Made by a program: the position numbers and the translations under genes
Notes under the pieces: generated by a model
Databases searched by the model: none
Seen by the model: the letters and a program-made list of their open reading frames with translations, nothing else
What the model was told of the DNA's origin: nothing
Shown: positions 2,095-53,405 of the stretch, one piece after another
Layout of the letters: each line of letters opens with the position of its first letter
How positions within the stretch are numbered: the first letter of the stretch is position 1
Assembly: GCA_947089095.1 (NCBI GenBank)
Contig: CAMUJB010000007.1
Coordinates: forward strand, 43,787-107,786
DNA length: 64,000 nt
Origin: an uncultured Clostridia bacterium
Lineage (GTDB): Bacteria; Bacillota; Clostridia; Lachnospirales; Lachnospiraceae
Direction of reading: 5' to 3'

Positions 2095-2338
2095 CAGCCA
2101 GAGTGCATTAGGGGTACACGGTGACTTCGTAGGAAAGTTAGAGGCTCTTAGACTTCTGTCGATCCATTAGGATTTTTTGCCATTCTCGAATGGCAAAAAA
2201 AGGGGTGTGTTTAGCCCGCTGTACGGGCGAATTGCACCCCGATCCGTCCGGTTAGATACACCCAACACCAGAAGTCTTAGAGCCTCTAACTTTCCTACGA
2301 AGTCACCGTGTACCCCTAATGCACTCTGGCGTCCCCTC
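2095..2338 (+). repeat. Fam-A palindromic structured element, copy 1 (core variant A; arms perfectly complementary)
   Basis: Termini cagccagag...ctctggcgtcc. ~60-bp inverted arms (gtgacttcgtaggaaagttagaggctcttagacttctg / rc). Conserved core ggatttt-P1-aaaaa-ggggtgtgtttagcc-cgctgtacgggc-gaattgc-acccc-gatccgtccgg. Nine copies in the window. Confidence 0.85.
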
Positions 2339-2358
2339 CGAAATCCTCTTTCCCCCTC

Positions 2359-3852
2359 TTAAATCCTCCCATACCGCTTTGCAATACCCAAAATCTCTTC
2401 CTGCAATTCCTTTGACAAATCCTCTTCCGTCAAACGCCACCTCCAGTTCGTCCCCACTGTAGAAGGCGTATTAATCCGACATGTATTATCATACCCAAGA
2501 TAATCCTGCATTGGAATAATACAAGTCTTTGCATTACTTCGCATCACCAAAGCAATAAACGCCTTATACAACAACTCCTTCGGCGTATAAAGATCACAAA
2601 GATACTCCCTTGCCATCTGCTGCTCTGCCTTTGAAATCGACTCAAACCACCCGCAGATTGTCTCATTATCATGAGTCCCTGTATAAGCCACACTATTTTC
2701 CATATAATTATGAGGCAGATAGTCATTTGCCGATCCAGAATCTCTAGAATCAAAAGCAAACTCCAACACCTTCATTCCCGGAAATCCACTGTCTGCAACC
2801 AACTGCCGCACCGAATCCGTGACATACCCCAAATCCTCTGCAATTACCTCATGCCATCCAAGCCGCTGTTCTACACAGCGAAACAGCTCAATCCCAGGGC
2901 CTTTCTCCCAATGCCCAATCTTCGCCGATTCCGCACCATAAGGAATCGAATAATACTCATCAAATCCCCGAAAATGATCAATCCGCACAACATCATACAG
3001 CCGAAAACAATAAGCCAGTCTTGAAACCCACCATTCATATCCAGTCTGCTTATGATACTCCCAGCGATACAAAGGATTCCCCCAAAGCTGCCCGTCTGCC
3101 GAAAACCCATCCGGCGGACATCCTGCTACCGCACAAGGTACATTCTGCTCATCTAACTGGAACAATTCTGGATGTGCCCAAGTATCCGCACTGTCCATTG
3201 CCACATAGATAGGAATATCCCCAATCAAGGCAATCCCCTTCTGATTGGCATACGCCTTTAACTGCCTCCACTGTTCAAAAAACTTAAACTGCATATACTG
3301 CTGAAACTCTATCTCAAAATATAACTCCCTGCGATAATAATCCATCGCAAGTCCCCAACGCAGCCGAATATCCTCTGCCCACTGCGTCCATGCTACGCCC
3401 TCAAACCGATCCTTAACCGCCATAAACAACGCATAGTCCGAAAGCCACCACTTATTTTCCTCTACAAACCACAGATAATCCGCATTTTCACTGACCTTAC
3501 TGCGTTCATACGCCTTTCGAAGCAAAGGATACCGATTTTGATAGAGCTTCTCATAATCAATATCTTCTAACCGACTTCCAAAATCCGCCTCTTCACACTC
3601 CTCCTCTGTCAAAACCCCTTCCTCTATCAGTGCCTCCAAACTAATAAAATAAGGATTTCCTGCAAACGTAGAAAATGACTGATAAGGAGAATCTCCATAA
3701 CTGGTAGGTCCAAGCGGCAAAATCTGCCAATAGGTCTGTCCGGCTTCTTTCAGCCAGTCTACAAAATCATATGCACTCTTTGAAAAACAGCCAATCCCAT
3801 AACGGGAAGGCAAACTGGTAATGGGAAGTAAAATACCTGCTGAACGTTTCAT
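2359..3852 (-). CDS. malQ: 4-alpha-glucanotransferase (amylomaltase, GH77)
   Basis: N-terminus MKRSAGILLPITSLPSRYGIG..GQTYWQILPLGPTSYGDSPYQSFS is the canonical MalQ signature. 497 aa. Confidence 0.9.
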   Translation of the reverse strand: MKRSAGILLPITSLPSRYGIGCFSKSAYDFVDWLKEAGQTYWQILPLGPTSYGDSPYQSFSTFAGNPYFISLEALIEEGVLTEEECEEADFGSRLEDIDYEKLYQNRYPLLRKAYERSKVSENADYLWFVEENKWWLSDYALFMAVKDRFEGVAWTQWAEDIRLRWGLAMDYYRRELYFEIEFQQYMQFKFFEQWRQLKAYANQKGIALIGDIPIYVAMDSADTWAHPELFQLDEQNVPCAVAGCPPDGFSADGQLWGNPLYRWEYHKQTGYEWWVSRLAYCFRLYDVVRIDHFRGFDEYYSIPYGAESAKIGHWEKGPGIELFRCVEQRLGWHEVIAEDLGYVTDSVRQLVADSGFPGMKVLEFAFDSRDSGSANDYLPHNYMENSVAYTGTHDNETICGWFESISKAEQQMAREYLCDLYTPKELLYKAFIALVMRSNAKTCIIPMQDYLGYDNTCRINTPSTVGTNWRWRLTEEDLSKELQEEILGIAKRYGRI

Positions 3853-4734
3853 CTATCTTTCTCCTTTCATCTTTTGCATGATTTCTTCCTCTGTCTCTAT
3901 CAAAACTCCAAAATGATCCGATACCTTTGGTGCTCTTTCTCCATTAAACAGTACCTTAGAATACGAGATCGGCATCTCTTTATTACACCAAATCACATCC
4001 ATTCTCATTCCCTCCGGTCTGTCCTGCTCCTGAGAAAATTCTCTCCATCCATCAATACAGCCCTCTACTGTAATCCCGCTGTCCTTTTGCTCTGCCAGAT
4101 TATAAGTATCCAGCCATCCGTCCCCACTGATACAATCATAACCCTGTCCACGAAATTCCGCCGGACTGTTAAAGTCCCCCATCAGCCAGATCACAGATTC
4201 CTCCCCTTTCTGCTGCAGCCGAGTATTCAGCCGTTTCCACTGTGCCAAAAAAGGTTCTTCTTCATCTTCCCACCAGCCCATATGAACCGTATAGAACCAG
4301 TGATCACTCTTCTCTGTCCGCACGCCTAATACCCGGCGTGTTTTCCAATTTTTATAGTCCTGACAACCACTGATAAAAAAAGATTCCATCTCGGTTAGTT
4401 TTTGATTGATAGCCAATACGGCGATTCCCTCATCATAGATATCATATCCTATCTTTGCCGAGATCCAAGTCCAAGAACAGGGAATTCCCGCCTGATGCAG
4501 CCGAAATGCTGCCTGTGCAGCATGGTTATCCTGACGAATCGGCACGGCATCCGGGCAGGGAACCCAGCCCTGCAGCAGCTTTGCATCTGCAAAAGGTGCT
4601 GACAGAGACTGATTCACTTCCTGCAAAGCAATCAAATCGGGTTTTTCTTTCTGAATAACAGAAAGAAAGAAATCGAGCTTCTGCAGATAATTCTCTTCTT
4701 GAAGACTGTGTGTATTTAAAGTCAACAGCTTCAT
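3853..4734 (-). CDS. mapP: Endonuclease/exonuclease/phosphatase-family protein, probable maltose-6'-phosphate phosphatase
   Basis: EEP fold (LIALQEVNQ, GDFNS motifs). It sits between a Glc/Mal-family PTS permease and malQ, as mapP does in Enterococcus. Confidence 0.6.
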   Translation of the reverse strand: MKLLTLNTHSLQEENYLQKLDFFLSVIQKEKPDLIALQEVNQSLSAPFADAKLLQGWVPCPDAVPIRQDNHAAQAAFRLHQAGIPCSWTWISAKIGYDIYDEGIAVLAINQKLTEMESFFISGCQDYKNWKTRRVLGVRTEKSDHWFYTVHMGWWEDEEEPFLAQWKRLNTRLQQKGEESVIWLMGDFNSPAEFRGQGYDCISGDGWLDTYNLAEQKDSGITVEGCIDGWREFSQEQDRPEGMRMDVIWCNKEMPISYSKVLFNGERAPKVSDHFGVLIETEEEIMQKMKGER

Positions 4735-4789
4735 CTGTTCTATTCCCTCCTATTTTCTTAAACGAGATCACCCATTCTCGTTCTATTTT

Positions 4790-7060: not shown

Positions 7061-7104
7061 AAACCCTCCATTCCTTAATTTTGATATATAATAATAAAAA
7101 AATT

Positions 7105-7170
7105 AATACATTGCATTGTGTTGCATAAATATTTGCACTAAAGTTTCATAAACTTTATGCAACATAACTG
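7105..7170. promoter_or_regulatory. Candidate LacI-type operator/promoter region in the malR / PTS divergent intergenic region
   Basis: AT-rich divergent region containing TGCA-palindromic half sites (tgcataaatatttgca, tttatgcaacataa). Assignment by eye only. Confidence 0.25.
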
Positions 7171-7386
7171 TACCGCATTTACTACAAAATTACAATAAAA
7201 ATTTCTAACTTTTTAGTATTTTCTATATATTGCATAATTATCCCCCTACTATTTTATGAAAAATGACGAAAAGGAAACTCGTCTTACGATTGACTTTTTT
7301 CCATTTTCTTTTTATAATCTATAAATAAATCAAAAAACAATCAAGCTTACAATAAATCAGAAAATATCAAAAAAGGAGCATCTATT

Positions 7387-8424: not shown

Positions 8425-8470
8425 AATAGGACTGAACCGGACACCGGACACCGAACGCCGGACGCATGAA

Positions 8471-8598
8471 GCAGAGAGGGTTTCTTTGCTGGGGCCGTTT
8501 GCACTAAGGCTTCCTCGCAGCGGACACATAAGGCACGAAAAAACCGTGCCTAAGTGCCGGCGGGAAGCAATACCCCTGCAAAGAAACCCTCTCTGCTC
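8471..8598 (+). repeat. Fam-C hairpin repeat, copy a
   Basis: Core tggggccgtttgcactaaggcttcctcgcagcggacacataaggcacgaaaaaaccgtgcctaagtgccggcgggaagcaatacccctgca. Complementary outer arms gcagagagggtttctttgc / gcaaagaaaccctctctgc. Copies at 9337(-), 63161(+) and 63946(-). Confidence 0.75.
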
Positions 8599-8709
8599 CA
8601 TACTGTATATTCCTAAATTCAAGTGTTCAAATTCGTCCTTCTGCATTTTCCCTATTGGGAATACAAAATAAATTTCTATGCTTTCAGAATTGTAGTAAAA
8701 TGAAAGAAG

Positions 8710-8829
8710 GTCAAATCGGATATTCGCAATCCGCTTCGCTGCTTGCTCATAACCTCATCAAGGAAGTCCCAACCCACCGCTTTCGCCTTGGCGGCTTAGA
8801 AACGGGGGACTTCCTTGATGAGGTTAAAT
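8710..8829 (+). repeat. Fam-B hairpin repeat, standard form
   Basis: ggtcaaatcggatattcgcaatccgcttcgctgcttgctcataacctcatcaaggaagtccc...gggggacttccttgatgaggttaaat. Confidence 0.75.
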
Positions 8830-8857
8830 AATAAAACAAAAACGGAGAAAAGAAAAT

Positions 8858-9310
8858 ATGGAAAAGTACACATATATCACTTTAAGGCAAAAGCCACAGA
8901 TAAAAGATACAGCAGCCGAATGGTTCCACTGTAAATGGGGCGTTCCCAAAGAAGCTTATCTGGAATGTATGAACGCTTATCTTAACAACGAAACGGAATA
9001 TGGCTGGTATCTTTGCTTAGATGAGAAAAAAATAATAGGAGGTCTTGGTGTAATTGAAAATGACTTCCACAATAGAAAAGATCTTGTTCCTAATGTCTGT
9101 GCAGTCTATACAGAAAAAGACTACCGATGTAGGGGGATAGCCGGACACTTGCTTAATATGGTGGTAGAGGATTTGAAATCCAAGTCCATAACGCCTATCT
9201 ATTTACTTACTGATCATACCAGCTTCTATGAGAAATATGGCTGGGAATTCTTATATATGGTTCAAGGAGATGGAGAACCCCATATGTCAAGAATGTATAT
9301 TCACAAATAA
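8858..9310 (+). CDS. GNAT-family N-acetyltransferase (150 aa)
   Basis: Acetyl-CoA binding motif region RCRGIAGHLLNMVVEDLK. RBS aacggagaaaag upstream. Flanked by inverted Fam-C repeats. Confidence 0.8.
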   Translation: MEKYTYITLRQKPQIKDTAAEWFHCKWGVPKEAYLECMNAYLNNETEYGWYLCLDEKKIIGGLGVIENDFHNRKDLVPNVCAVYTEKDYRCRGIAGHLLNMVVEDLKSKSITPIYLLTDHTSFYEKYGWEFLYMVQGDGEPHMSRMYIHK

Positions 9311-9336
9311 TTTCTAGCTTTCCGGTCGGAATACAC

Positions 9337-9477
9337 AGCAGGCAGGAGAGAGGGAATCTTTGCAGGGGTATTGCTTCCCGCCGGCACTTAGGTGCTGTTC
9401 TTTAGCACCTTATGTGTCCGCTGCGAGGAAGCCTTAGTGCAAACGGCCCCAGCAAAGAATCCCTCTCTCCTGCCTGC
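9337..9477 (-). repeat. Fam-C hairpin repeat, copy b (inverted relative to copy a)
   Basis: Reverse complement of the Fam-C core, with its own complementary outer arms gcaggcaggagagaggg / ccctctctcctgcctgc. Confidence 0.75.
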
Positions 9478-9506
9478 GTCCTCCCCCCTCCTATTTATGT
9501 CCTTTC

Positions 9507-11411: not shown

Positions 11412-11532
11412 AGTCAAATCGGATATTCGCAATCCGCTTTGCTACTTGCTCATAACCTCATCAAGGAAGTCCCAACCCACCGCTTTCGCCTTGGCGGCTT
11501 AGAAGCGGGGAACTTCCTTGATAAGGTTAAAA
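11412..11532 (+). repeat. Fam-B hairpin repeat, standard form; its terminal ggttaaaag supplies the TAA stop of the DUF445 gene
   Basis: Sequence identity to the other Fam-B copies. CDS 11527..12429 stop codon (rc of tta at 11527-11529) lies inside the element end. Confidence 0.75.
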
Positions 11533-12429
11533 GCATAGATTGATACATCCGATAATTAGTCCAATTAAAGCCCCCAAATTGATAATGGAATGAAGCTCCT
11601 TTTCCATAACGGAAAGGGTCAGTTTTTCAATCTCTTTTACATCCATAGTACGAATTTTTTCCTCGACAATCTGACTAATCGGAATATATTCCATTATAGT
11701 GCCAAAATAGTCTGTAATAATCCGCCGATAGAGAGATAACATCAGCTGTTCTAAATTTTCTTCTGTAACAGGCAGACCTTCCACTGTTTCGGCAATGGTT
11801 TTATCTGCAAAGCGATAGACTTCTTCTTTTGTTTTTTCCTCTATTAATGCTTTGCCATGTTCTTCTAGATATTGATTGAGTTCTTTTCTTATCATCTGTT
11901 CCATTCCGGCAATCATCTTATCATTTAACATCATAGCAAGTAAGGTGCCCTGTGTTTTCTGCCGAATTACTTCTGCTACCTTTTCTCCTACAATACTTCC
12001 AAAGTCCATCTCCGTTACTTTGTGATAGAGAAGCTCTCCTACGGTTTCTATCGTTTTTGTCAAAAACTGATCTACGGTTTCTTCTGAAGTCTGTTTTTCG
12101 GCAAATTCTTTTATTGTATTCTGATTGGTAATTCCTTTTTGATAAAAAACCGAAATTTGATTTTTTACTGTTTCCTGCATCTGCTCTGATAATAAAAGCT
12201 GCTCAAAATCTTTCTTTGTCAATAATACTTCTCCTACTGCTTCTCCCACTGCTTTTGCCAGCCGTTCCCTTCCTTTTGGAATAATTCCGGGAGTAAAGGG
12301 AAGCTGCCACTTTCCAAGATAGACTGGATACAACGGTCGAAACAGCATCTTTACTGCAATATAATTGGTAAAATATCCAATTGCAGCCCCTACCACAGGT
12401 CCTGCAAGCATTGTAATATCAAAAGCCAT
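11527..12429 (-). CDS. DUF445-family membrane-associated protein
   Basis: N-terminus MAFDITMLAGPVVGAAIGYFTNYIAVKMLFRP matches the DUF445/YheB-type family. Confidence 0.6.
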   Translation of the reverse strand: MAFDITMLAGPVVGAAIGYFTNYIAVKMLFRPLYPVYLGKWQLPFTPGIIPKGRERLAKAVGEAVGEVLLTKKDFEQLLLSEQMQETVKNQISVFYQKGITNQNTIKEFAEKQTSEETVDQFLTKTIETVGELLYHKVTEMDFGSIVGEKVAEVIRQKTQGTLLAMMLNDKMIAGMEQMIRKELNQYLEEHGKALIEEKTKEEVYRFADKTIAETVEGLPVTEENLEQLMLSLYRRIITDYFGTIMEYIPISQIVEEKIRTMDVKEIEKLTLSVMEKELHSIINLGALIGLIIGCINLCF

Positions 12430-12451
12430 TGCTGATTCTCCTCTTTTGCCC

Positions 12452-21565: not shown

Positions 21566-21805
21566 AAAGGGGACGCCAGAGAGTATTAAAAGCACGCTGT
21601 TCCGCTCTCCAGAAAACAGAAACTCTAAGACTTCTGAATTTCAATGCATCCAACCGGACGGACCGGCACGCAATTCGCCTCTGCAGGAGGCTAAACACGT
21701 GCCTTTTTCGGGCACAAGTGCCCGAAAATCCTACAGAATCGACAGAAGTCTAAGAGTTTCTAGTTTTCCTCCGAAGTCACAGCGTACTTTTAATACTCTC
21801 TGGCT
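21566..21805 (-). repeat. Fam-A palindromic structured element, copy 2 (core variant B, reverse orientation)
   Basis: rc of core ggattttcgggcacttgtgcccgaaaaaggcacgtgtttagcctcctgcagaggcgaattgcgtgccggtccgtccgg. Termini ggggacgccagag...ctctggcta. Confidence 0.85.
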
Positions 21806-22120
21806 ATATAATTCCACAATTTACGTTTCTTTTCTTTCGCGGTTGTATGGTTCTTCAATTTGTGTTTTTTCTCCTTGGTGGTTGTATGATTCTGCAATTT
21901 ACGTTTCTTCCCCTTTATGGTTATATGACTCTGCAATTTATGTTTCTCCTTAGCGGTTGTATGATTCTGCAATTTACATTTCTTCTCTTTCATGGTTGTA
22001 TAATTCTGCAATTTATGTTTCTTCCCCTTTGTGATTATATGACTCTGCAATTTATATTTCTTCTTGGCGGTTGTATGATTCCGCAATTTACGTTTCTTTT
22101 TCTTTGCAGATGTATAATTT
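21806..22120. repeat. Tandem-repeat array 1 (about 9 units of alternating 39 and 36 bp; unit ggttgtatgattctgcaatttacgtttcttc...)
   Basis: Direct repeats read from the sequence. Starts at the ctctggc terminus of Fam-A copy 2. No interspersed unique spacers. Confidence 0.85.
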
Positions 22121-22237: not shown

Positions 22238-22510
22238 CATAAATTGCGGGAATACCAGCCAGAGGGAGAAAGTAAAATGGTATCGCAGTGACTTCGGAGG
22301 AAAGTTAGAAGGTCTTAGACTTCTGTCGATTTTGTAGGATTTTCGGGCACTTGTGCCCGAAAAAGGCACGTGTTTAGCCTCCTGCAGAGGCGAATTGCGT
22401 GCCGGTCCGTCCGGTTGGATACACCGAAATTCAGAAGTCTTAGACCTTCTTACTTTCCGTAGAGCGGAACTGCGATACCATTTTACTTTCTCCCTCTGGC
22501 GTCCTCCCCC
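22238..22510 (+). repeat. Fam-A palindromic structured element, copy 3 (core variant B, forward)
   Basis: cataaattgcgggaataccagccagag...core B...ctctggcgtcctccccc. Confidence 0.85.
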
Positions 22511-29220: not shown

Positions 29221-30984
29221 ATGAGAAAACATACGCTAGAAACCCGCTGGACACAGCAAATTACAGAAACAAATGCCTGGCAGGAATACCCTCGCCCTAC
29301 TATGGTTCGCTCCTCTTATATAAACCTAAATGGTTACTGGGATTATAAAATCAGCAGACGTCACACCTTTCCCTCCGCCTATAGCGGAAAAATCCTAGTT
29401 CCATTCTCTCCCGAATCCAAACTATCCGGTGTACAGCGTCAGTTAAAACCAAATGAATATCTCTGGTACCACAGAACCCTTACCCCTTTATCATTTTCCA
29501 AACAAGAACGCCTCTATCTGCACTTTGGTGCAGTAGACCAATCCTGCACCGTTTACCTCAACCGCCGGAAAGTCGGTTCCCATCAGGGAGGCTATCTTCC
29601 TTTTTCGATTGACATTACGGAAGCGATGCGGCACGCTTCACCCAAAAAGTCTCTAGACTTATTCGTATGTGTAACCGATCCCAGTGACACCTCCTATCAC
29701 AGCCGGGGCAAACAAAAGCTCCGCAACGGCGGAATGTTTTATACTGCACAAAGCGGAATCTGGCAGACCGTCTGGATGGAACTTGTACCGGAAAATTTTA
29801 TCCGCTATGTCAAATTCACTCCTGACTACGATAAAAAAGAAGTAAAAGTAAAGATTGCTACAGAAAAAACCTGTCCTGCTGTATTACATCTAAAATTAGA
29901 ATCCGGCGATCTCTCTTATTCTTTTACAAGCAACCAAAGCTTTCGGATTCCGATTCGGGAATTTCACGCATGGAGTCCAGAGCATCCCTATCTGTACCAA
30001 GTAAAAATCACTACAAAGACAGACTGTATCTCCAGTTACTTTGCCCTAAGAAAATGTGAAATTCAAACCGATTCAAACGGAATCCGAAAAATCTTTCTTA
30101 ATAATCGCCCCTATCCGCAGATTGGCATCCTCGATCAGGGATACTGGCCAGACGGACTCTATACCCCGCCCTGTGAAGAAGCGATTTTATTTGATCTTTT
30201 GGCAATAAAAAAATTGGGATTTAATATGATCCGCAAACATGTAAAAATCGAATCGGAACGCTGGTACTATCACTGTGATCGGCTTGGTATTCTAGTCTGG
30301 CAGGATATGGTAAATGGCGGCTCACGCTACCACCGCTGGTTTGTTACTTACTTTGCCACTCTCTTTAACTGCCTGAATATCCGAATATTTGATCGTCCTC
30401 ATGCTTTATTTTCACGCAGACAAAAAGAAAGCCGAACCGAATGGACCAAAGAAGTCGTATCCACTGTCCGCACCTTATATCCTCATCCCTGCATTGTATG
30501 CTGGGTTCCATTTAACGAAGGATGGGGACAGTTTCGTGCACTTTCAGCAGCAGAATTGATTCGCAGTCTAGACAAAGAGCGGCTGATCGATCACGCCAGC
30601 GGCTGGTTTGATCAGGGAGGCGGCGATATAAAAAGTATTCACTACTATTTCTTCTCCCTGATTCTAAAACCGGAACGGCGTGCACTCGCTCTGACCGAAT
30701 TCGGCGGCTACACTTGGCATGTAAAAAAACACAGCTATTCCTCCAAAAAATTTGGCTATCGAACTTTTTACAGCAAAAATTCCCTGTCAAAAGGCTATGC
30801 CAAATTATTAGAAGACCTGATTTTTCCTGCATTTCAAAACGGACTTTCCGCCTCCGTCTATACCCAGCTTTCCGATGTAGAAGAGGAACTAAACGGCATC
30901 TTTACCTATGACAGAAAAATTCTGAAATTAGACAAAAAAACGGTTACCGAATGGAACCAAAAAATAAAAAATCTAATCGAGTAG
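29221..30984 (+). CDS. Glycoside hydrolase family 2-like protein
   Basis: 587 aa. N-terminal sugar-binding-like region and TIM-barrel segment (WQDMVNGG). Family assignment from overall similarity only. The last codons ATC GAG TAG lie inside a Fam-D repeat. Confidence 0.55.
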   Translation: MRKHTLETRWTQQITETNAWQEYPRPTMVRSSYINLNGYWDYKISRRHTFPSAYSGKILVPFSPESKLSGVQRQLKPNEYLWYHRTLTPLSFSKQERLYLHFGAVDQSCTVYLNRRKVGSHQGGYLPFSIDITEAMRHASPKKSLDLFVCVTDPSDTSYHSRGKQKLRNGGMFYTAQSGIWQTVWMELVPENFIRYVKFTPDYDKKEVKVKIATEKTCPAVLHLKLESGDLSYSFTSNQSFRIPIREFHAWSPEHPYLYQVKITTKTDCISSYFALRKCEIQTDSNGIRKIFLNNRPYPQIGILDQGYWPDGLYTPPCEEAILFDLLAIKKLGFNMIRKHVKIESERWYYHCDRLGILVWQDMVNGGSRYHRWFVTYFATLFNCLNIRIFDRPHALFSRRQKESRTEWTKEVVSTVRTLYPHPCIVCWVPFNEGWGQFRALSAAELIRSLDKERLIDHASGWFDQGGGDIKSIHYYFFSLILKPERRALALTEFGGYTWHVKKHSYSSKKFGYRTFYSKNSLSKGYAKLLEDLIFPAFQNGLSASVYTQLSDVEEELNGIFTYDRKILKLDKKTVTEWNQKIKNLIE

Positions 30985-31068
30985 GAAAGGTTACTTTCCC
31001 TACTCGCTGTCTCAGGCGTCCGTCAGCTCCGCTGACCTATTTCATTTAAACATTCATGTGCATAAAAA
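30975..31068 (+). repeat. Fam-D repeat, copy a (aatcgagtagg-hairpin-...gctgac...cataaaaa)
   Basis: Copies at 37750, 40424 (deletion form) and 49331. Contains hairpin gagtaggaaa..tttccctactc. Confidence 0.7.
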
Positions 31069-33162: not shown

Positions 33163-33428
33163 CAAGGGGACGCCAGAGTGCTTTAGGGAGACGTGTTCCG
33201 CTCTCCAGAAAGCAGAAGTTCTAAGACTTCTGAATTTCCGTGCATCCCGCCGGACGGACCGGCACGCAATTCGCCTCTGCAGGAGGCTAAACACGTGCCT
33301 TTTTCGGGCACAAGTGCCCGAAAATCCTACAGAATCGACAGAAGTCTAAGAACTTCTAGCTTTCCTCCGAAGTCACAACGTCTCCCTAAAGCACTCTGGC
33401 TGTATTGTCTCACAATTTACGTTTCCTT
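33163..33428 (-). repeat. Fam-A palindromic structured element, copy 4 (variant B, reverse)
   Basis: ggggacgccagagtg...rc core B...ctctggctgtattgtctcacaatttacgtttc. Confidence 0.85.
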
Positions 33429-33545
33429 TCTCGATCCTCTATGAATACAGGAATCAACTTTTATGTTTTCTTTTCTCGATCCTCTATGGATACAGGAATC
33501 AATTTCTATGTTTTCCTTTTTCGAACCTCCATGGATACAGGAATC
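33429..33545. repeat. Tandem-repeat array 2 (about 2.7 units of 45 bp; tcgatcctctatggatacaggaatcaatttctatgttttcctttt)
   Basis: Direct repeats lying between the head-to-head Fam-A copies 4 and 5. Confidence 0.8.
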
Positions 33546-33555
33546 AAATAAAAAC

Positions 33556-33833
33556 TTATCGGCAGGAAAAAACAGCCAGAGTGGGGAAAAGATTCCTTGC
33601 CACTGTGACTTCGGAGAAAAGTTAGAAAGTCTTATGCTTTTGTCGATCCACTAGGATTTTTTGCCATTCTCGAATGGCAAAAAAAGGGGTGTGTTTAGCC
33701 CGCTGTACGGGCGAATTGCACCCCGATCCGTCCGGCTGGATGTATCTACATTCAAAAGCATTAGACTTTCTTACTTTTTGGAGAGCGGAACAGTGGCAAG
33801 GAATCTTTTCCCCACTCTAGCGTCCCCCCGCCC
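33556..33833 (+). repeat. Fam-A palindromic structured element, copy 5 (variant A, forward)
   Basis: cttatcggcaggaaaaaacagccagag...core A...ctctagcgtccccccgccc. Confidence 0.85.
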
Positions 33834-37588: not shown

Positions 37589-37749
37589 AGCCGTCCCTTT
37601 CCCCGTCATACCAAACCTGCCATCCCTTCCGCCTGTCACAATGGAACCTCTACCCTCCTTCTACAATCAAACAAGAAAAATTTATCTTCCCCTGCTCATC
37701 TACCAAAATCTGTCAGCTTACTGAACGATTCCTTTGAACACCCATATAC

Positions 37750-37845
37750 CATCGAGTAGGAAAATTTCCTCTCCTTACTCGCTGCACCAAGCGTCCATCA
37801 GCTCCGCTAACATCATTCCCTTGGACGCCCGCATACATAAAAAAA
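37750..37845 (+). repeat. Fam-D repeat, copy b (inside the thi leader)
   Basis: atcgagtaggaaaatttcctctccttactcgctg...cagctccgctaac...gcatacataaaaaaa. Confidence 0.7.
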
Positions 37846-37980
37846 TGCAGACACGCAAAAAGCATATCTGCACCGTTCTTCCGCAAATGATGTCCCTACG
37901 TTGGCATTATCCAAATCAGGTTTTAAGGGTAAAAGCCTCACATGCTTACTCTCAGCCTATTCTAATAAGCTCCCCATATA
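37838..37980 (-). promoter_or_regulatory. TPP (THI-box) riboswitch with terminator-type expression platform, upstream of thiM-E-D-C
   Basis: Minus-strand aptamer GGGGAGC..GGCUGAGAG..ACCCUUAAAACCUGAUUUGGAUAAUGCCAACGUAGGGA matches the THI-element consensus. It is followed by the hairpin ugcagauaugcuuuuugcgugucugca + U7. Confidence 0.85.
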
Positions 37981-38019
37981 TTTCTATTATAACCTCTTTT
38001 TAAAAAAACACAATCCCCT

Positions 38020-38347
38020 TTTTCCAACAAAATCCTTTAACCCCTCCCAACACCATACCTCATTTGAACCTCTATTTTTTACTGAAATTATTCGAACCAA
38101 GTCCAATCAAATCCAACACCATACCTCATTTGAACTCCTATCTTTTACTGAAATTGGTCCAACCAAGTCCAATCAAATCCAACACCATACCTCATTTGAA
38201 CTCCTATCTTTTACTGAAATTGGTCCAACCAAGTCCAATCAAATCCAACACCATACCTCATTTGAACTCCTATCTTTTACTGAAATTGGTCCAACCAAGT
38301 CCAATCAAATCCAACATCGTACCTCATTTAAGCCTCTATCTTTTACT
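38020..38347. repeat. Tandem-repeat array 3 (about 4.7 units of 66 bp; caacaccatacctcatttgaactcctatcttttactgaaattggtccaaccaagtccaatcaaatc)
   Basis: Direct repeats abutting the 5' terminus of Fam-A copy 6. Confidence 0.85.
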
Positions 38348-38630
38348 CTATCGGCAGGATAAATCAGCCAGAACAAAGAAGCAATTTCTTGCTGACGTGA
38401 CTTCGGAGAAAAGTTAGAAAGTCTTACGCTTTTGTCGATCCACTAGGATTTTTTGCCATTCCCGAATGGCAAAAAAAGGGGTGTGTTTAGCCCGCTGCAC
38501 GGGCGAATTGCACCCCGGTCCGTCCGGCTGGATGCATCAAAATTCAAAAGCGTTAGACTTTCTTACTTTTCGGAGAGCGGAACGTCAGCAAGAAATTGCT
38601 TCTTTGTTCTAGCGTCCCCCACCCCCCATC
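38348..38630 (+). repeat. Fam-A palindromic structured element, copy 6 (variant A, forward)
   Basis: ctatcggcaggataaatcagccagaac...core A...ttctagcgtcccccacccccc. Confidence 0.85.
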
Positions 38631-48897: not shown

Positions 48898-49170
48898 AGT
48901 GGGGGGAGGACGCCAGAGTATGGCATTGCAGTACTGTTTCGCTCTACAGAAAGTAAGAAGCTCTAAGACTTCTGAATTTAGATGTATCCAACCGGACGGA
49001 CCGGGGTGCAATTCGCCCGTGCTGCGGGCTAAACACACCCCTTTTTTTGCCATTCAAGAATGGCAAAAAATCCTAATGAATCGACAGAAGTCTAAAAGCT
49101 TCTAACTTTCCTCCGAAGTCACAGTACTGCAATGCCATACTCTGGCTGTCTTTTTCCACAATATAGGTAT
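48898..49170 (-). repeat. Fam-A palindromic structured element, copy 8 (variant A, reverse)
   Basis: ggggggaggacgccagag...rc core A (P1 gccattcttgaatggc)...ctctggctgtctttttccacaatataggtattc. Confidence 0.85.
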
Positions 49171-49194
49171 TCTTTATTTCTCTTTTTTTGTTTT

Positions 49195-49240
49195 TTTAAC
49201 CTATCAAGGATGTAGTGGAGAGGATTCTGAATTTCCTTTG
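49195..49240 (-). repeat. Fam-B short form (reverse orientation)
   Basis: rc reads gtcaaaggaaattcagaatcctctccactacatccttgataggttaa. Confidence 0.55.
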
Positions 49241-49330
49241 ACTTAATAAAATAAAAGGCAGTTATCTTATCTTTTGATAACTGCCCAAACTAATGGTGAA
49301 TAAAATTTGTTATATTCTTTCTATTTTTAT

Positions 49331-49437
49331 AATCGAGTAGGGAAGGCTGCCTCCTCTACTCGCCGTGCTAAATGTCTGTCAGTTCTGCTGACATCGTTCC
49401 TTGAGATATCTGTGTACATAAAAAAATTCCCTGTAAA
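49331..49437 (+). repeat. Fam-D repeat, copy d, immediately beside tRNA-Leu
   Basis: aatcgagtagggaaggctgcctcctctactcgccg...tctgctgacatcg...gtacataaaaaaa. Confidence 0.7.
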
Positions 49438-49470
49438 CATTTCGTCTACAGAGAACGCCCCTGCCAAGAG

Positions 49471-49553
49471 TGCCGCAGGCCGGACTTGAACCGGCACGAG
49501 GTCGCCCCCGCTAGATTTTGAGTCTAGTGCGTCTGCCATTCCGCCACTGCGGC
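49471..49553 (-). tRNA. tRNA-Leu (anticodon CAA), class II with long variable arm
   Basis: Manual cloverleaf: acceptor GCCGCAG/CUGCGGC, anticodon stem CUAGA/UCUAG, loop CUCAAAA, T-arm GCCGG-UUCAAGU-CCGGC, discriminator A. No encoded CCA. Confidence 0.9.
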
Positions 49554-49703
49554 AATTCCTTAACACTTGATAAGTCTATCATAGAAATAAATCCTTGTCA
49601 ACTCTTTTTTTACAAATTTCGAAATTTGCTTGATATGGTTTTTTACAAATTTATTGTATTGTTTTTTTGAGAATTTTTCTGTAACTTTTTTTACAGTTAT
49701 AAA

Positions 49704-52076
49704 CTACTCTTCTGCCTGCATCTGCTCTATTAGGGATTGTTTTTTCTGCCTATGAATCACCCAAGCGGTCAGGATAAATTCTATACTAAACAGTCCCAAG
49801 ATAAACAGTCCCATTTCAAGGATAGGAAATTGATATGGAACAATTTTGCCGCTAAAAGATCGCTTGCTCAGTTCCCTGCATACCATAACTGCAATTGGAA
49901 GCCCCATAAATAAGACTGTCAAAATAACAAAACAGGTATAACAAAGCCCCTCACAAATATTCATTTGATATAGTTGTTTCTTTGTCAGACCAATCGAGCA
50001 CAAGATACTGTTTTCCCGTTTTCGAAACATCTGATTGGAAAGTGTCGTATTGATTAAATTAATAACTCCAAACAGGAAAATCAACCAAGAAAATGCCTGC
50101 ATACTCCCAAAAATAAAAGAATTTTGCCATTTCTCATATTCAATATGTGCCTCAATAGTATCCAATCCAATATTGCTGTGGTTAGACAGGATTTTTTGCA
50201 GTCCGTTTTTCACGCTCTCTGATTTTTCTGAATCACTGACAATACTCCAAGAATAGTCAAAATTTTTAATTTCAGGCAGAATTTCTTGAAATAGTGCCTC
50301 TGGTGCAAACATAGAAACACTGTCAAGAAAAAGTGCACCATGCCCATTTCCAATCTTAGTTACATCAAATAAACCACATATCGTAACAGTCGTGGTTTTT
50401 TGACCCAAAGACAGTTCCATAACTGCCCCTACCGTCATATCATCATAATGTTTATAATAATTTGTACCCAAAATAACGCTGTGTGAATCCTTCGGCATCG
50501 TACCAGATATCAGTGCAGCTTCTACTGACAAAACATTTTCGTGAGTCAGCATATCGCACATACCTACGGAAGCATTTTTAGAAGTCCGAAATGCTGCATG
50601 TACAGATCTGCGTGTAACCAGCACCTCTGCTACCCCATCCACAGATAAAATTTCCTGCCGCAGCTTTTCATTCAGCGGATTATCGATACTCATAATTTCC
50701 GTCTCTGACTGTTCCGAAGCCAAATAGATTTTATAATCTCCGTCCGAAAAAAACAGCCTTGCCGCCTGCTCCGGCGATCGAGTCAGCAGCATAGAAGATA
50801 CAATTAAAAGAATCATTCCACCCAAACTTAAAGATGCTACAATACTAACCGCCTTTCTGCGATCACGCAGAAAATTCGCTATCCCCATAGATACAGGATT
50901 TAATTTTATATGTTTCTTCCGACTGTATATTTTTTCCTGTCCCATAGAAAAACGCATTGCTTCCAGCGGTGAAATTCCGGCAGCTATTTTAACTGGTCTA
51001 CGAACAGAAACAACCACCATAAACCAGCAGATCCATACTGTGAAAAAAACAACCATCCCATAAGAAACAATATGAACACCCTTTGGGAATAAAACCAATC
51101 CTGCACAGACTCCCAAAAAAACTCCAAACAAAATTCCCATACTGCCAAGCTGTCGGCTCTCTCTCTTTACTATGCCCCGAAGCTGTTTTGGCGTTGTGCC
51201 AATTGTACGAAGCTGTCCATAACTTCGAATCTTATTATTGACAGAGATACGAAAAATACTCTGAATAACAACATAGCCGCCAATCAGTACAAGAATTGCA
51301 GCACCACCAACTGTAACAAAATCAATCGACCTTGAATAATAAATGAAATAATTACTGTTTATTCCCGCAGGAGGCAGATCATATTGAGCGGCAATCTCTT
51401 TGCAGCGGGCAGTTATAATCTCCTGACCAAGCTGCCGATCATTCTGAAAATGTACATAAGCACGATATCCAACCGGATTAAAACCTGCCCATTCTGTCAA
51501 TGTCTCCTTTGAAACAACAAAGACGCAGATATTTTCCTCTTTCTCACTCATACCCCTCATAATACCAGTCACCATATATTCCCCTTGAAAACTTTCCGTA
51601 TCCAACAGAACCGTTTCACCAATTCCAGCATTAGAGCCATAAGCAGAAAGAAAATATTCGCTGACAACAACTTCATTTGCCTGTTTCGGAAGCCGCCCTT
51701 TTACCAATTCCATCTGACTGCGGGCAATATACATCATCTCACTGTCACAGTACACATACGATGCATGATATCCTCGTTCCGAGTGCTCCTGCCCCAACAG
51801 ATAATATTCACCCACGCGGACAAACTCTGGCAAACCTTTTAAAACTGCCACATCCGATTCATCAACACCAGTAAAAACCGCCTCATAAGTATCAGCCACC
51901 TGACGGCGTTGCATCTGTGTAATTGAAACAGATGTAATTCCTGCAAAACAAATCAAAAATGCCGCCAATCCAACCGCAACCACTACCATCAGATTCCTGC
52001 GTCTCTCACTTTTCAGACTCCTTTTTGCTAACTTCTTTACAACAGCACGGGTATCATTTTCAAAAGGCCAAGTCAT
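49704..52076 (-). CDS. FtsX-family ABC transporter permease (MacB/BceB-like, two FtsX domains), no adjacent ATPase
   Basis: 790 aa, 10 predicted TM segments, large extracytoplasmic loops. Confidence 0.8.
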   Translation of the reverse strand: MTWPFENDTRAVVKKLAKRSLKSERRRNLMVVVAVGLAAFLICFAGITSVSITQMQRRQVADTYEAVFTGVDESDVAVLKGLPEFVRVGEYYLLGQEHSERGYHASYVYCDSEMMYIARSQMELVKGRLPKQANEVVVSEYFLSAYGSNAGIGETVLLDTESFQGEYMVTGIMRGMSEKEENICVFVVSKETLTEWAGFNPVGYRAYVHFQNDRQLGQEIITARCKEIAAQYDLPPAGINSNYFIYYSRSIDFVTVGGAAILVLIGGYVVIQSIFRISVNNKIRSYGQLRTIGTTPKQLRGIVKRESRQLGSMGILFGVFLGVCAGLVLFPKGVHIVSYGMVVFFTVWICWFMVVVSVRRPVKIAAGISPLEAMRFSMGQEKIYSRKKHIKLNPVSMGIANFLRDRRKAVSIVASLSLGGMILLIVSSMLLTRSPEQAARLFFSDGDYKIYLASEQSETEIMSIDNPLNEKLRQEILSVDGVAEVLVTRRSVHAAFRTSKNASVGMCDMLTHENVLSVEAALISGTMPKDSHSVILGTNYYKHYDDMTVGAVMELSLGQKTTTVTICGLFDVTKIGNGHGALFLDSVSMFAPEALFQEILPEIKNFDYSWSIVSDSEKSESVKNGLQKILSNHSNIGLDTIEAHIEYEKWQNSFIFGSMQAFSWLIFLFGVINLINTTLSNQMFRKRENSILCSIGLTKKQLYQMNICEGLCYTCFVILTVLFMGLPIAVMVCRELSKRSFSGKIVPYQFPILEMGLFILGLFSIEFILTAWVIHRQKKQSLIEQMQAEE

Positions 52077-52326
52077 AATCCACCGCCTCCTGAACCCAAA
52101 CTCCTATCCCTCTCAATCCCCACAACCCCCACAATTTACTCCACCGAACAGCACCATCCCGCCATCTCCTGAAAACATTCCAAACAATCCTCTGCAATAC
52201 TTTCATCTTAACCTAAGACACTCCTTTCTAAACAATTTACCTTATAGAGCCTATTATAAAATCCAAATATCACAGAAATGTCCGAATGAAACCATTCTCG
52301 TTTCATTTTTTATGACCCCATTCTTT

Positions 52327-52995
52327 CTATCTTCTATCCTCTATCTTCCCCTTTTCACAAAACGATTTCTCGTTTCGTTTCTCACAGGACTGTTTCGAAA
52401 AAATACAACCGCAGTAATTCTGCCGATAAAGTCCATACTCCCTTGAAAGTTCAATAGAACGCTGGTATCCATTCTTCTTCTTAAAATCAGAAAAAAGATA
52501 AGGTACACCATACTCTTCTGAAAGAACCGCACCAATTTCATTTAACTTCTCTGCATTTTTCAAAGGACTAATACTCAAAGTAGTTGTAAAATAATCAAAT
52601 CCCCCCTGCTGTGCCATCCGAGCTGTCTCCTCTAATCTTAACCTATAACAGCGAAAACACCTCTCTCCGCCTTCCCTTTCCCCTTCTAATCCCTTTACCG
52701 CATCAAAAAATCGCTCCTGTCTATACTCTCCCTCCAAAAAATGCACCGGATACCGAAACGGCATAGCAGCAATCAACCGCTTCTCCTCCTCTACCCGATA
52801 CCGATATTCCTTCTCAGGAGAAATATTCGGATTAAAATAAAACACCGTAATTTCAAAATAATTCGATAAATACTCCATTACATAACTAGAACAAGGGGCA
52901 CAACAACTATGTAAAAGAAGTCTCTTTCCTATCCCCTCCTGTTCCTGTATTTTTTCCAATATCCGTTCCAATGTCTTCTGATAATTCTCAGCCAT
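52327..52995 (-). CDS. queH: Epoxyqueuosine reductase QueH (DUF208)
   Basis: LLLHSCCAPCSSYV...YFNPNISP...CFRCYRL...YCGCIF Cys pattern typical of QueH. Confidence 0.75.
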   Translation of the reverse strand: MAENYQKTLERILEKIQEQEGIGKRLLLHSCCAPCSSYVMEYLSNYFEITVFYFNPNISPEKEYRYRVEEEKRLIAAMPFRYPVHFLEGEYRQERFFDAVKGLEGEREGGERCFRCYRLRLEETARMAQQGGFDYFTTTLSISPLKNAEKLNEIGAVLSEEYGVPYLFSDFKKKNGYQRSIELSREYGLYRQNYCGCIFSKQSCEKRNEKSFCEKGKIEDRR

Positions 52996-53130
52996 ACTCC
53001 TAAACTACATCCTTCCTAATTCAAAATCCCATCTCTATCCACACACCAAAAAATATCATACCACTCCTCATTCCACCAAACCACCCCAAAATTCCCTCCC
53101 ATTCCCACCTGAATAAAAAATAAAAATCAA

Positions 53131-53405
53131 ATCTATCGCCAGAAAGAACCAGCTGGAGTTTGGAAGCCCTTTCTCTATGCAGTGACTTCGGAGAAAAGTT
53201 AGAAAGTCTTATGCCTCTGTCGATCTCCTAGGATTTTTGCCATCTTCTGATGGCAAAAAAGGGGTGTGTTTAGCCCGCTGCACGGGCGAATTGCACCCCG
53301 GTCCGTCCGGTTGGATATATTTTCATTCAGAGGCATTAGACTTTCTTACTTTTCGGAGAGCGGAACAGCATAGAGAAAGGGCTTCCAAACTCCAGCGTCC
53401 TCTAC
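53131..53405 (+). repeat. Fam-A palindromic structured element, copy 9 (variant A with P1 gccatc-ttct-gatggc)
   Basis: aatctatcgccagaaagaaccagctggag...core A...actccagcgtcctctacacc. Confidence 0.85.

Follow-up and report, generated by a model that had tools for sequence, protein, structure and literature searches.

Along the 64-kb stretch of DNA analyzed here (the window), a non-coding inverted-repeat unit recurs between genes, and the question it raises is whether these copies are remnants of a mobile element or repeated sites with a function of their own. A sequence-only reading had labelled them MITE-like and had offered, as an alternative, a repeated functional RNA or DNA site; the latter is the reading favored by our data. 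On balance, we consider it more likely than not that the nine copies form a divergent branch of the TwoAYGGAY-type structured-RNA repeat family, one that is specific to this lineage and has been amplified on a massive scale.

The number of copies was determined with a profile made from the copies themselves (nhmmer, E<1e-5), which returned exactly the nine elements counted earlier, with a unit length of 237-255 nt. Their alignment has a mean column identity of 77% and their RNA fold a z-score of -14.8, so that the repeat signal is far beyond chance. The termini CAGCCAGAG ... CTCTGGCGTCCYC, the inverted arms of about 60 bp (cttagacttctg/cagaagtcttag) and the conserved central core that had been described are all present in the sequence, the core being about 110 nt long instead of about 90 nt. 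The starts first given for the longer copies lie about 17 nt upstream of the profile starts, since they take in a conserved 5' flank. The elements and the tandem repeats that accompany them are listed below. The strand given for each copy is that of the Rfam-sense core, and A and B are the two subtypes, A being directed into the start of the downstream gene and B lying antisense just past a stop codon.

2095-2334, plus strand: copy 1, nhmmer 231 bits, 17-bp variable segment, A-like 5' flank
21570-21806, minus strand: copy 2, subtype A, left member of divergent doublet 1
21817-22119: tandem repeat, 39 nt x 7.9, spacer of doublet 1
22256-22504, plus strand: copy 3, right member of doublet 1, a hybrid with a 23-bp variable segment and an A-like 5' flank
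33167-33403, minus strand: copy 4, subtype A, left member of doublet 2, directed into an HD-domain gene
33422-33556: tandem repeat, 45 nt x 3, spacer of doublet 2, its final unit being the conserved B 5' flank
33572-33826, plus strand: copy 5, subtype B, right member of doublet 2, 3' end 46 nt from the thiC stop codon
38047-38347: tandem repeat, 66 nt x 4.6, 5' of copy 6
38365-38618, plus strand: copy 6, subtype B, 3' end 32 nt from the stop codon of a NAPRTase gene
43002-43252, plus strand: copy 7, subtype B, flanked by PilM/FtsA-like and MVP-like genes
48908-49149, minus strand: copy 8, subtype A, the sole window copy over the Rfam threshold
53150-53400, plus strand: copy 9, subtype B, downstream of an M32 peptidase gene
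53404-53478: tandem repeat, 37 nt x 2.1, separating copy 9 from the stop codon of the upstream gene

As had been claimed, all nine copies are intergenic, with a minus-strand gene on either side (of the 13 gaps of this kind that measure 100 nt or more, 7 are occupied), and no transposase is found among the ten flanking genes in a Pfam scan. The 3' end of copy 2 is directed into a downstream FAD-oxidoreductase gene, and that of copy 3 lies 29 nt from the stop codon of an M23 peptidase gene (both Pfam). Copy 1 is placed like a B copy, its 3' end lying 24 nt from the stop codon of a convergent malQ-like gene (2359-3852, minus strand; Pfam). Its arms are palindromised ("flipped"), since the two arms are exactly complementary save at one U.U site, and the usual asymmetric G.A loops are thereby erased. 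The 39-nt repeat unit in doublet 1 includes the reverse complement of the A 5'-flank motif GAAACGTAAATTG, and the repeat at 38047-38347 differs in copy number between strains by multiples of 66 nt.

The window belongs to the same species as the metagenome-assembled genome (MAG) MGBC128194, a mouse-gut Lachnospiraceae species. The genome-wide expansion of a non-coding repeat that had been predicted was borne out in this MAG, where 181 further matches were found in 754 kb; the density is about 1 copy per 7 kb.

A search of Rfam, suggested in the sequence-only reading, identified the match as TwoAYGGAY (RF01731), a motif described by Weinberg et al. (2010) from human gut and Clostridiales (PMC2864571). 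A catalogued counterpart therefore does exist, as a known RNA family and not as an IS-derived MITE with a known transposase. Copy 8 matched RF01731 at 48942-49117 with 70.5 bits, the gathering threshold being 43 bits, and the other 8 of the 9 window copies scored below it; for two copies in an 801-nt stretch no RF01731 match was found at E<=10. Among the MAG copies, three of seven sufficiently complete ones were over threshold (67.4, 54.7, and 50.4 bits). All RF01731 matches with an assignable subtype are of type A, the third MAG match being a partial, untypable copy, and none of the B-type copies tested reached the gathering threshold.

Each copy folds into an interrupted stem of about 60 bp capped by two consecutive hairpins that share this basal stem (RNAalifold, RNAfold). 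At the base of the rod is a conserved 7-bp clamp, GCCAGAG/CUCUGGC, followed by a helix of 17 bp in subtype A or 23 bp in subtype B that is free in sequence and keeps its pairing (95.5% Watson-Crick, with a column conservation of only 30-50%). Above it, a conserved helix of about 35 bp is broken by tandem G.A motifs, as reported for the TwoAYGGAY family (PMC4333381), by a GGA/GGA loop and by two U.U mismatches. At the apex, the two hairpins are linked by invariant unpaired nucleotides, and their loops are UUCUCGAA or CUUG and CUGCA or CUGUA. Conservation is highest in the interior, the termini being conserved over 7-9 bp only and the sub-terminal part being the most variable. The purine-purine oppositions GUGAC/GGAAC and CGGAG/CGGAG are conserved in more than 90% of copies.

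The pairing is maintained by compensatory changes. In the nine window copies, 42 of 93 pairs are compensatory, and both apical hairpins show compensatory haplotypes. In 52 B copies, 98.9% of cells are paired, although copies diverge by about 17%, as compared to 86.2% in shuffles and 42-50% in slid controls; double changes occur at 49 of 81 pairs, a number reached by 0 of 500 shuffles. At positions with predominantly Watson-Crick pairs, G.U exceeds A.C by 66:12 in subtype A and 53:20 in subtype B. Moreover, the sense fold is the stabler one in 93% of 106 copies (mean difference 10.2 kcal/mol, p = 7e-18; 8.8 kcal/mol in subtype B), it is the sense strand that carries the purine-rich G.A loops, and the favored strand is identical in the two subtypes. 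Because G.U exceeds A.C and the Rfam-sense strand folds about 10 kcal/mol better, the pairing constraint acts on one strand, and the constrained molecule is most likely RNA. G.T is the most tolerated mismatch also in single-stranded DNA, and therefore strand asymmetry alone leaves room for a folded ssDNA form.

The copies are located at operon boundaries, and their arrangement follows strict rules. All 45 close neighboring pairs are divergent (45/45), and the typed ones comprise 20 A/B, 4 B/B, and 0 A/A pairs. For A, the gene beyond the 3' end runs in the same direction as the element in 35 of 46 cases; for B it is convergent in 38 of 54, at a median distance of 84 nt from its stop codon. Tandem repeats, which often separate the two members of a close pair, were found 5' of the element in 32 cases and 3' of it in 12, the upstream units measuring 13-67 nt. 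In 106 copies, the flanking motifs are conserved and subtype-specific. Subtype A has an extended -10-like motif (position weight matrix) that ends 1 nt before the element, with a full TGnNANNNT match in only 22 of 50 A copies, and a tail consisting of GUCC-UCUUUGG and then U-rich sequence. No -10 element is recognisable in the 5' flank of subtype B, and a simple sigma-70 scan showed no enrichment.

According to the mechanism that we propose, transcription would run outward from the 5' side and, in doublets, divergently from the repeat-rich spacer, giving discrete rod-shaped RNAs with a predicted length of about 240-255 nt. In subtype A, the putative transcription unit has the -10-like motif before the element and a small hairpin with a U-rich stretch after it, whereas in subtype B it would run antisense toward the 3' end of the upstream gene. 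The probable role of the conserved internal loops and the apical junction is that of a protein-binding platform, and the variable helix may be a spacer for which only double-strandedness is needed.

Hairpins of about -130 kcal/mol or stronger form on both strands, with T-rich tails next to them in the gene-sense direction, and a cis role as operon punctuation is therefore also probable: B might act as a terminator or 3' protector of the upstream mRNA, and A would stand at the head of the next unit. That the elements are nothing but host-selected punctuation, acting only in cis as gene-sense terminators, 3'/5' stabilisers or RNase III sites, seems to us unlikely. The position of B past stop codons would suit this explanation, as would the UCUUUUCC stretch (complement of B's conserved 5' flank) that follows its reverse complement in gene sense, the occurrence of B at one site in place of the ordinary terminator of a sister species, and a perfect basal duplex of 24-30 bp that would be suitable for RNase III. 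A simple terminator scan calls none of these hairpins, their stem and loop exceeding its limits. Against punctuation alone, the strand favored in B (53:20; 8.8 kcal/mol) is antisense to the neighboring gene, the opposite of what selection for a gene-sense hairpin would produce; a plain terminator does not need an invariant apical domain of 110 nt; and copy 8, of subtype A, is followed 38 nt downstream by a conserved promoter (TTGCAA-N17-TAGAAT) that belongs to the next gene itself.

Comparison of strains and species showed that the copies are old, fixed among strains, and slower-evolving than the neighboring intergenic DNA. Five sites were compared, and at none of them does any of the nine other strains with a covering contig lack the element; divergence from these strains amounts to 0.74% for the elements, 0.88% for coding sequence, and 1.55% for the remaining intergenic DNA. 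In a sister species three orthologous sites are empty, that of copy 7 consisting of only 18 nt and that of copy 9 of a 131-nt gap with an ordinary terminator. Presence/absence differences are seen only between species, and the family colonised intergenic gaps in the host species. Between any copy and its closest non-orthologous counterpart, the similarity does not exceed 95% (median 89.7%).

A within-species compensatory change was found in copy 7, where the paired positions 43022/43231 are A-U in the window and C-G in other strains. Besides copy 1, one MAG copy has perfectly complementary arms, and these two cases point to DNA-level conversion from arm to arm, which could contribute to the maintenance of pairing. 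A further conceivable, if rather improbable, explanation is that of a self-propagating RNA-structured repeat with a single-stranded hairpin intermediate (RNA or ssDNA), whose arms would be kept complementary by templated arm-to-arm copying and which would have settled at operon boundaries as two forms, each with its own orientation. Such copying would agree with the palindromised arms of copy 1 and with the switch from A-U to C-G. If this explanation were true, an operon would be bracketed as A -> genes <- B and its primary transcript would have complementary 5' and 3' ends; the elements would then be a new kind of bacterial mobile element and, at the same time, a genome-wide punctuation system.

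The MITE label given to the elements at first is not supported by the data. A classical MITE would be a deletion derivative of an IS, moved in trans by a transposase, with the hairpin as a by-product devoid of RNA function, and we regard this origin as quite unlikely. It would account for an intergenic, non-coding, high-copy inverted-repeat unit and for the empty orthologous sites in the sister species, in which IS110-type and IS605-type genes lie nearby. No target-site duplication was found in the flanks of 106 copies, which are instead conserved by subtype, and no transposase or multi-copy ORF in 818 kb, part of the genome (tblastn with IS200 and IS608 TnpA sequences; repeated ORFs in 754 kb). 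The short conserved termini around a conserved interior, the absence of near-identical copies, a polymorphism below that of other intergenic DNA, and the lack of insertion polymorphism among the nine strains all argue against it. So does the co-variation of the arms on one strand, with its G.U excess and 98.9% pairing, since transposase-bound terminal repeats need no such pairing.

About equally poor are the prospects of a REPIN-like or attC-like ssDNA hairpin, spread or maintained by a single-copy HUH/RAYT-type enzyme or recombinase. The strand-specific fold, the paired, sequence-free segment between conserved boxes, and the two copies with palindromised arms would fit, and a preprint (10.64898/2026.09.22.753630) links the TwoAYGGAY loci of Pseudomonas to REP arrays. 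Nevertheless, A and B are opposite relative to genes, hence probably to the direction of replication, and share the same favored strand; structured RNAs typically have features such as the tandem G.A, GGA/GGA, and U.U motifs and the invariant nucleotides of the junction; and no Y1 transposase was found with the IS200 and IS608 TnpA queries in 818 kb, part of the genome. Finally, CsrA/Rsm-titrating sponges, as proposed in print for canonical TwoAYGGAY RNAs (PMC4333381; preprint 10.64898/2026.09.22.753630), are highly improbable here in spite of several GGA triplets per copy (e.g., UAGGAU and UUGGAU at the junction), considering that AYGGAY occurs in 0 of 106 sense strands, that GGA density on this strand is only 23-27 per kb, and that GGA is absent from the terminal loops of both hairpins. 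The absence of AYGGAY loops weakens the sponge idea for this branch and moves the focus to the G.A/U.U stem motifs and the apical junction.

TwoAYGGAY has reportedly been an orphan RNA motif since 2010. The host carries a stripped-down version of it, devoid of AYGGAY loops and extra hairpins, at a density several-fold above that of the richest Pseudomonas genome reported, and with unusually clean rules (two subtypes, 45/45 divergent doublets, a fixed position relative to start and stop codons, a sequence-free paired segment). The orientation rules yield concrete predictions for RNA-seq, Term-seq, and protein pull-downs, which makes this genome a good place to work out the role of the family. 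A second high-copy repeat of the same genome weakly resembles the orphan gut motif Clostridiales-1, a resemblance which hints that several orphan gut RNA motifs may be amplified intergenic repeats.

Among known systems, Correia elements of Neisseria and enterobacterial ERIC sequences are stem-loop MITEs that affect mRNAs; they are co-transcribed with neighboring genes and can supply promoters, terminators, and RNase III sites, and they have target-site duplications or defined terminal repeats and little conservation of internal structure. Like these units of 100-250 bp, the present elements are inverted repeats at gene boundaries, but they lack the duplication and have an invariant apical domain, a strand-specific fold, and two oppositely oriented subtypes. 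With REP/REPIN sequences they share the character of short intergenic hairpin-forming repeats in hundreds of copies, with inverted doublets, preserved pairing, and no recognisable internal transposase. However, a REP is a palindrome of 20-40 nt and a REPIN consists of two REPs, whereas the present unit is a 250-nt multi-domain fold; REP/REPIN have RAYT transposases, none of which was found in the 818 kb searched here, and the conserved purine-rich internal loops point to RNA.

With TwoAYGGAY, the elements share the basal stem with tandem G.A and the two consecutive hairpins on top. The present elements differ from the canonical motif by the absence of AYGGAY from either loop and by a stem about 30 bp longer, owing to the variable paired segment and the conserved clamp. 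Flanks that differ by subtype are new as well, and so is a density of about 1 copy per 7 kb. In Pseudomonas, a September 2026 preprint (10.64898/2026.09.22.753630) describes TwoAYGGAY extended by three hairpins and a 3' pseudoknot, with a median of 11-23 and a maximum of 202 copies per genome, 68% divergent doublets, AYGGAY loops, and 5-6-nt upstream repeats, behaving as a mobile repeat by a mechanism that is not given. Judging from size and copy number, this extended form probably corresponds to R200, an intergenic repeat described in P. fluorescens SBW25 (PMC2718517). Both forms are multi-copy and intergenic, and in both, doublets with a spacing of a few hundred bp are divergent more often than not, repeat arrays lie 5' of the element, copy number is lineage-specific, and a spread like that of a mobile element is suspected. 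In contrast to the Pseudomonas form, the present elements have an elongated stem, upstream units of 13-67 nt, exclusively divergent doublets (45/45), two gene-context subtypes, and a far higher density. The same preprint (10.64898/2026.09.22.753630) reports Bacillota matches that lack the extension and have an elongated basal stem, and it is with this form, with its elongated stem and no extra hairpins, that the present elements agree.

A search of the window with a profile built from the copies returned exactly nine elements (E<1e-5) and no further degenerate ones, so that the nine-copy repeat described in the sequence-only reading is real; the termini, arms and core listed there were all found in the copies, by sequence and alignment.

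Elements returned by the profile search (strand given by the asymmetric core)
2095-2334, plus strand, element
21570-21806, minus strand, element
22256-22504, plus strand, element
33167-33403, minus strand, element
33572-33826, plus strand, element
38365-38618, plus strand, element
43002-43252, plus strand, element
48908-49149, minus strand, element
53150-53400, plus strand, element

As had been claimed, each of the nine is intergenic, with co-directional minus-strand genes on both sides; of the 13 gaps of this kind that measure 100 nt or more, seven are occupied. The ten neighbouring genes are ordinary on the basis of Pfam (response regulator, FAD-dependent oxidoreductase, malQ, thiC, thiM, NAPRTase and M23 peptidase among them), and no transposase was found among them. 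Of about 49 genes in the window, all but six are encoded by the minus strand. The window has a very strong and uniform GC skew (-0.16 to -0.47, in 2-kb windows), which is at its most extreme where element-bearing intergenic regions are included; there, G-rich runs come after the stop codons, in the gene sense. A TPP riboswitch upstream of the thiM operon (37876-37986, minus strand) and a tRNA-Leu(CAA) (49470-49553, minus strand) are ordinary. The window also encodes an MVP-like protein of 812 aa (40475-42913, minus strand), with MVP_shoulder, Vault_3 and Band_7 domains, which resembles the major vault protein. This protein is common across Lachnospiraceae, and a 67%-identical homologue sits amid many short unannotated genes, including RecT, SSB, Dam and GIY-YIG, in a setting that looks prophage-like.

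When a 20-base core pattern was scanned over one genome per species, the blocks among the matches listed, at least 120, all came from one MAG, MGBC128194, of an uncultured mouse-gut Lachnospiraceae. The identity between the window and contigs of this MAG (98.5-99.1%) indicates that they belong to the same species. In agreement with the genome-wide expansion that had been proposed, 754 kb of MAG blocks contained 181 non-overlapping element matches, 110 of them full length, and many MAG contigs end inside an element. These blocks were chosen for holding a match, and the unbiased density is that of the window (9 per 64 kb); if the window is typical, there would be several hundred elements per genome. 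No element match was observed in plasmids, phages and viral contigs, nor in 884 kb from 80 metagenome loci that surround NAPRTase homologues (71-77% amino-acid identity).

The sense strand of the element, which is the one matching the orientation of the Rfam family TwoAYGGAY (RF01731), opens with CA-GCCAGAG and a variable-sequence segment of 17 or 23 nt, followed by GUGACUUCGGAGGAAAGUUAGAAGNUCUUAGACUUCUG, UCGAUCCAYUAGGAUUUU and hairpin 1; AAAAAGG then leads into hairpin 2 (GUGUUUAGCC...GGCGAAUUGC), which is followed by CCGGUCCGUCCGGUUGGAUAC. The 3' arm includes GGAGAGCGGAAC and then the complement of the variable segment, ending with CUCUGGC-GUCC. The arms are not a plain palindrome: inside them are conserved non-canonical oppositions, namely tandem G.A (GUGAC/GGAAC), a GGA/GGA loop and two U.U mismatches (GUUAG/CUUAC and CUUAG/CUUAG). 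This fold is under constraint. The folding energy of one copy was -141.9 kcal/mol (z = -14.8 vs. shuffles), and of the 93 pairs predicted for the nine window copies, 42 remain paired although both partners have changed. When 52 copies of the longer subtype were examined, standard pairs made up 98.9% of cells, as compared to 86.2% in column shuffles and 42-50% with slid partners; double changes occur in 49 of 81 pairs, and the covariation score was 0.375 vs. 0.126 in shuffles, none of 500 shuffles reaching such covariation. In the variable segment, 2062 of 2159 positions (95.5%) are Watson-Crick paired, although column conservation is only 30-50%. Since a first full-length set of 132 matches contained 13 reverse-strand duplicates, counts were redone on non-redundant copies.

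Copies fall into two subtypes. Subtype A (17-bp variable helix, ~240 nt) has a conserved 5' flank, AAACGTAAATTGTGGRANAATA, which reads TRTGn followed by RANAAT, an extended -10-like motif that ends 1 nt before the element and is complete in 22 of 50 copies. On the 3' side of subtype A, the flank UCC-UCUUU-GGRA could fold into a small hairpin, with U-rich sequence after it. Subtype B (23-bp helix, ~253 nt) carries CTAYCGGCAGGAAAAGA as 5' flank, with no -10-like element in it, and a C-rich 3' flank. The classes are not absolute: copy 22256 pairs a B-length helix with an A-like flank, and copy 2095 is A-like by sequence and positioned like a B. The gene 3' of subtype A was co-directional in 35 of 46 cases (start codon at a median of 140 nt), and the gene 3' of subtype B was convergent in 38 of 54 (stop codon at a median of 84 nt). 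All 45 neighbouring pairs less than 2 kb apart are divergent, and the typed ones comprise 20 A/B, four B/B and no A/A pairs, with gaps of 75-1121 nt. Taken together, the divergent pairing and the gene contexts of the subtypes indicate that operons are bracketed in the form A -> genes <- B. The vicinity of the elements is enriched in tandem repeats (unit length 13-67 nt), of which 32 lie 5' and 12 lie 3' of an element; those of the window are duplicated 5'-flank motifs. A 66-nt tandem repeat (38047-38347) varies in unit number among strains: between NAPRTase and thiM there are 1145 nt in the window vs. 1013 nt in three strains (L212-L214), and a MAG contig (L052, 4775-4943) has two more units (132 nt) than the window. 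A scan of 18 kb with sigma-70 and terminator consensus sequences gave no enrichment and no calls at elements, and was uninformative. A sigma-54-like reading of the 5' flanks was rejected by eye, the spacing being off by one or two bases. The variable segment as a guide was also rejected, because its longest exact match to the 1.5-kb flanks of its own element was 8.0 nt, as compared to 8.1 nt for segments of other copies.

The elements thus lie at operon boundaries and obey orientation rules. Either strand forms a very stable hairpin, with a T-rich tail after it in the gene sense, and a role in cis, in termination or protection, is therefore probable as well. Such punctuation as the sole role of the element is unlikely in our estimate. 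At Watson-Crick-dominated positions of 97 non-redundant copies, the ratio of G.U to A.C was 66:12 for subtype A (p = 3e-10) and 53:20 for subtype B (p = 1e-4), an asymmetry stronger than when reverse-strand duplicates were included. Of 106 copies, 93% fold more stably as the sense strand than as the complement (mean difference 10.2 kcal/mol, p = 7e-18), in subtype A and subtype B alike. Considering that A and B are oppositely oriented to their neighbour genes, a mutation bias linked to genes or replication would push the subtypes in opposite ways, which was not seen. The strand asymmetry and the purine-rich internal loops therefore point to a folded RNA of the Rfam sense, leaving some narrow room for a folded single DNA strand; a hairpin element acting as single-stranded DNA, similar to REPINs or attC sites, is a rather poor candidate. 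These data demonstrate a selectively maintained, strand-specific multi-domain fold.

We slightly favour, on balance, a reading that combines RNA and cis functions. Transcription would probably proceed outward from the repeat-rich 5' side and give rod-shaped RNAs of ~240-255 nt, whose conserved G.A/U.U loops and apical junction would bind protein and whose variable helix would be a spacer required only to be double-stranded. In cis, B would probably terminate or protect the upstream mRNA, and A would head the next unit.

Non-orthologous copies are never more than 95% alike (nearest-neighbour median 89.7%, all-pairs median 83%), and therefore no recent burst is visible. Doublets (two neighbouring divergent elements, often with a repeat-rich spacer) were rejected as recent inverted duplications, full-length similarity being 0.782 for partners vs. 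0.782 for non-partners; partners are slightly more alike in the core only (0.883 vs. 0.851, p = 0.027). In nine other strains (~99% identity), the element was present in every contig covering an element site, and the pooled divergence from the window amounted to 0.74% for elements, as against 0.88% for coding sequence and 1.55% for intergenic DNA outside the elements, the nine strains not being independent samples. Two of the 15 polymorphic element sites, 43022 and 43231, are pairing partners (A-U in the window, C-G in five other strains) and represent a within-species compensatory double substitution in one element.

The sister species, a syntenic relative (85% amino-acid identity in the MVP-like protein), shares ~12 kb of synteny and has no element. 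Where the window has 397 nt between the PilM-like and MVP-like genes, the sister species has 18 nt; for the M32/QueH gap the lengths are 511 nt and 131 nt, the shorter gap holding an ordinary terminator and having no similarity to the longer one; between tRNA-Leu and the following gene they are 678 nt and 228 nt, and here the flanks are conserved. The conserved TTGCAA-N17-TAGAAT promoter of the gene after tRNA-Leu lies 38 nt past the 3' end of an A copy. In a relative with 73% M23 peptidase identity, the M23 stop codon is immediately followed by part of an element in antisense orientation; this diverged copy has different termini and keeps the CUUAG, GGAGA-type and CCGG...CCGG-UGGAUA motifs. 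The element is absent in relatives at 78-81% identity; the family is therefore older than the species and patchy among relatives, and it is strongly expanded in the present species. In copy 2095-2334 and in a MAG copy (L054, 3313-3554) the 3' arm is overwritten by the complement of the 5' arm, and this exact complementarity erases the asymmetric G.A loops. The sequences of these two copies suggest templated arm-to-arm conversion in DNA, which may help to keep the arms paired.

The repeat had been described in the sequence-only reading as MITE-like. Conservation is highest in the element interior and lowest in the sub-terminal helix, the reverse of what is expected of transposase-bound terminal repeats. 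No partner enzyme was found in 818 kb by tblastn with IS200 and IS608 TnpA queries, and an all-against-all comparison of 525 ORFs gave no repeated ORFs. We regard a transposase-driven MITE as improbable, and nothing observed accounts for the spread of the family. The interpretation as a MITE was only partly right; the repeat belongs to a known RNA family.

Two other repeat families are present nearby. The second one, a high-copy intergenic hairpin repeat (AACCTCATCAAGGAAGTCCCCCGCTTCTAAGCCGCCAAGGCGAAAGCGG...GGGACTTCCTTGATGAGGTT), gave 62 BLAST matches in 818 kb, some pairs being 96% alike, and one copy matches Rfam Clostridiales-1 (RF01699) weakly (24.8 bits, gathering score 48). The third, a hairpin (CGAGTAGGGAAAG...CTTTCCCTACTCG) with T-rich sequence after it, resembles a terminator; it gave 10 BLAST matches in 818 kb and is also found in a related species, at a different site.

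Copies of the second and third repeat families (window, unless a database locus is named)
1750-1917, second family
8710-8832, second family
11413-11535, second family
40196-40363, second family
63853-63919, second family
L051 752-923, second family
30974-31068, third family
37749-37843, third family
49330-49424, third family
L202 9881-9991, third family

Between the MVP-like and NAPRTase genes, the sister species (L208, 12976-15734) carries an IS110-type gene (Transposase_20), an IS605 TnpB gene and a TnpA-like fragment, where the window carries the second family. Two-copy repeats (8458-8610 / 63147-63299, 82% identity; 9357-9403 / 63950-63996, 89%) lie near second-family copies.

As a search of Rfam, suggested in the sequence-only reading, revealed, copy 48942-49117 (minus strand) matches RF01731 TwoAYGGAY with 70.5 bits (E = 8e-10). 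Scores of 50-67 bits were obtained for three of seven sufficiently complete copies from small MAG loci, and two other window copies gave no RF01731 match, even in an 801-nt search. The matches with an assignable subtype are all subtype A, the third MAG match being a partial copy. Like TwoAYGGAY, whose basal stem is reported to contain tandem G.A motifs (PMC4333381), the element has a basal stem with such motifs and two hairpins; unlike it, it has no eponymous AYGGAY loops. CsrA-type motifs were rejected for the present branch, since AYGGAY occurs in the sense strand of none of 106 copies and the ATGGAT of the B 5' flank in only ~12% of copies, and a CsrA sponge is hardly credible. According to a preprint of September 2026 (10.64898/2026.09.22.753630), TwoAYGGAY is multi-copy in Pseudomonas (median 11-23 per genome, maximum 202), divergent doublets are enriched (68%) and repeats adjoin, and in the matches from Bacillota an elongated basal stem replaces the extra hairpins. 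The window element is of this Bacillota type, divergent and far denser than the Pseudomonas form. Within the known, functionally orphan TwoAYGGAY family it represents a new variant, elongated, hyper-abundant and lacking the AYGGAY loops, and its orientation rules are new constraints on what this family does.
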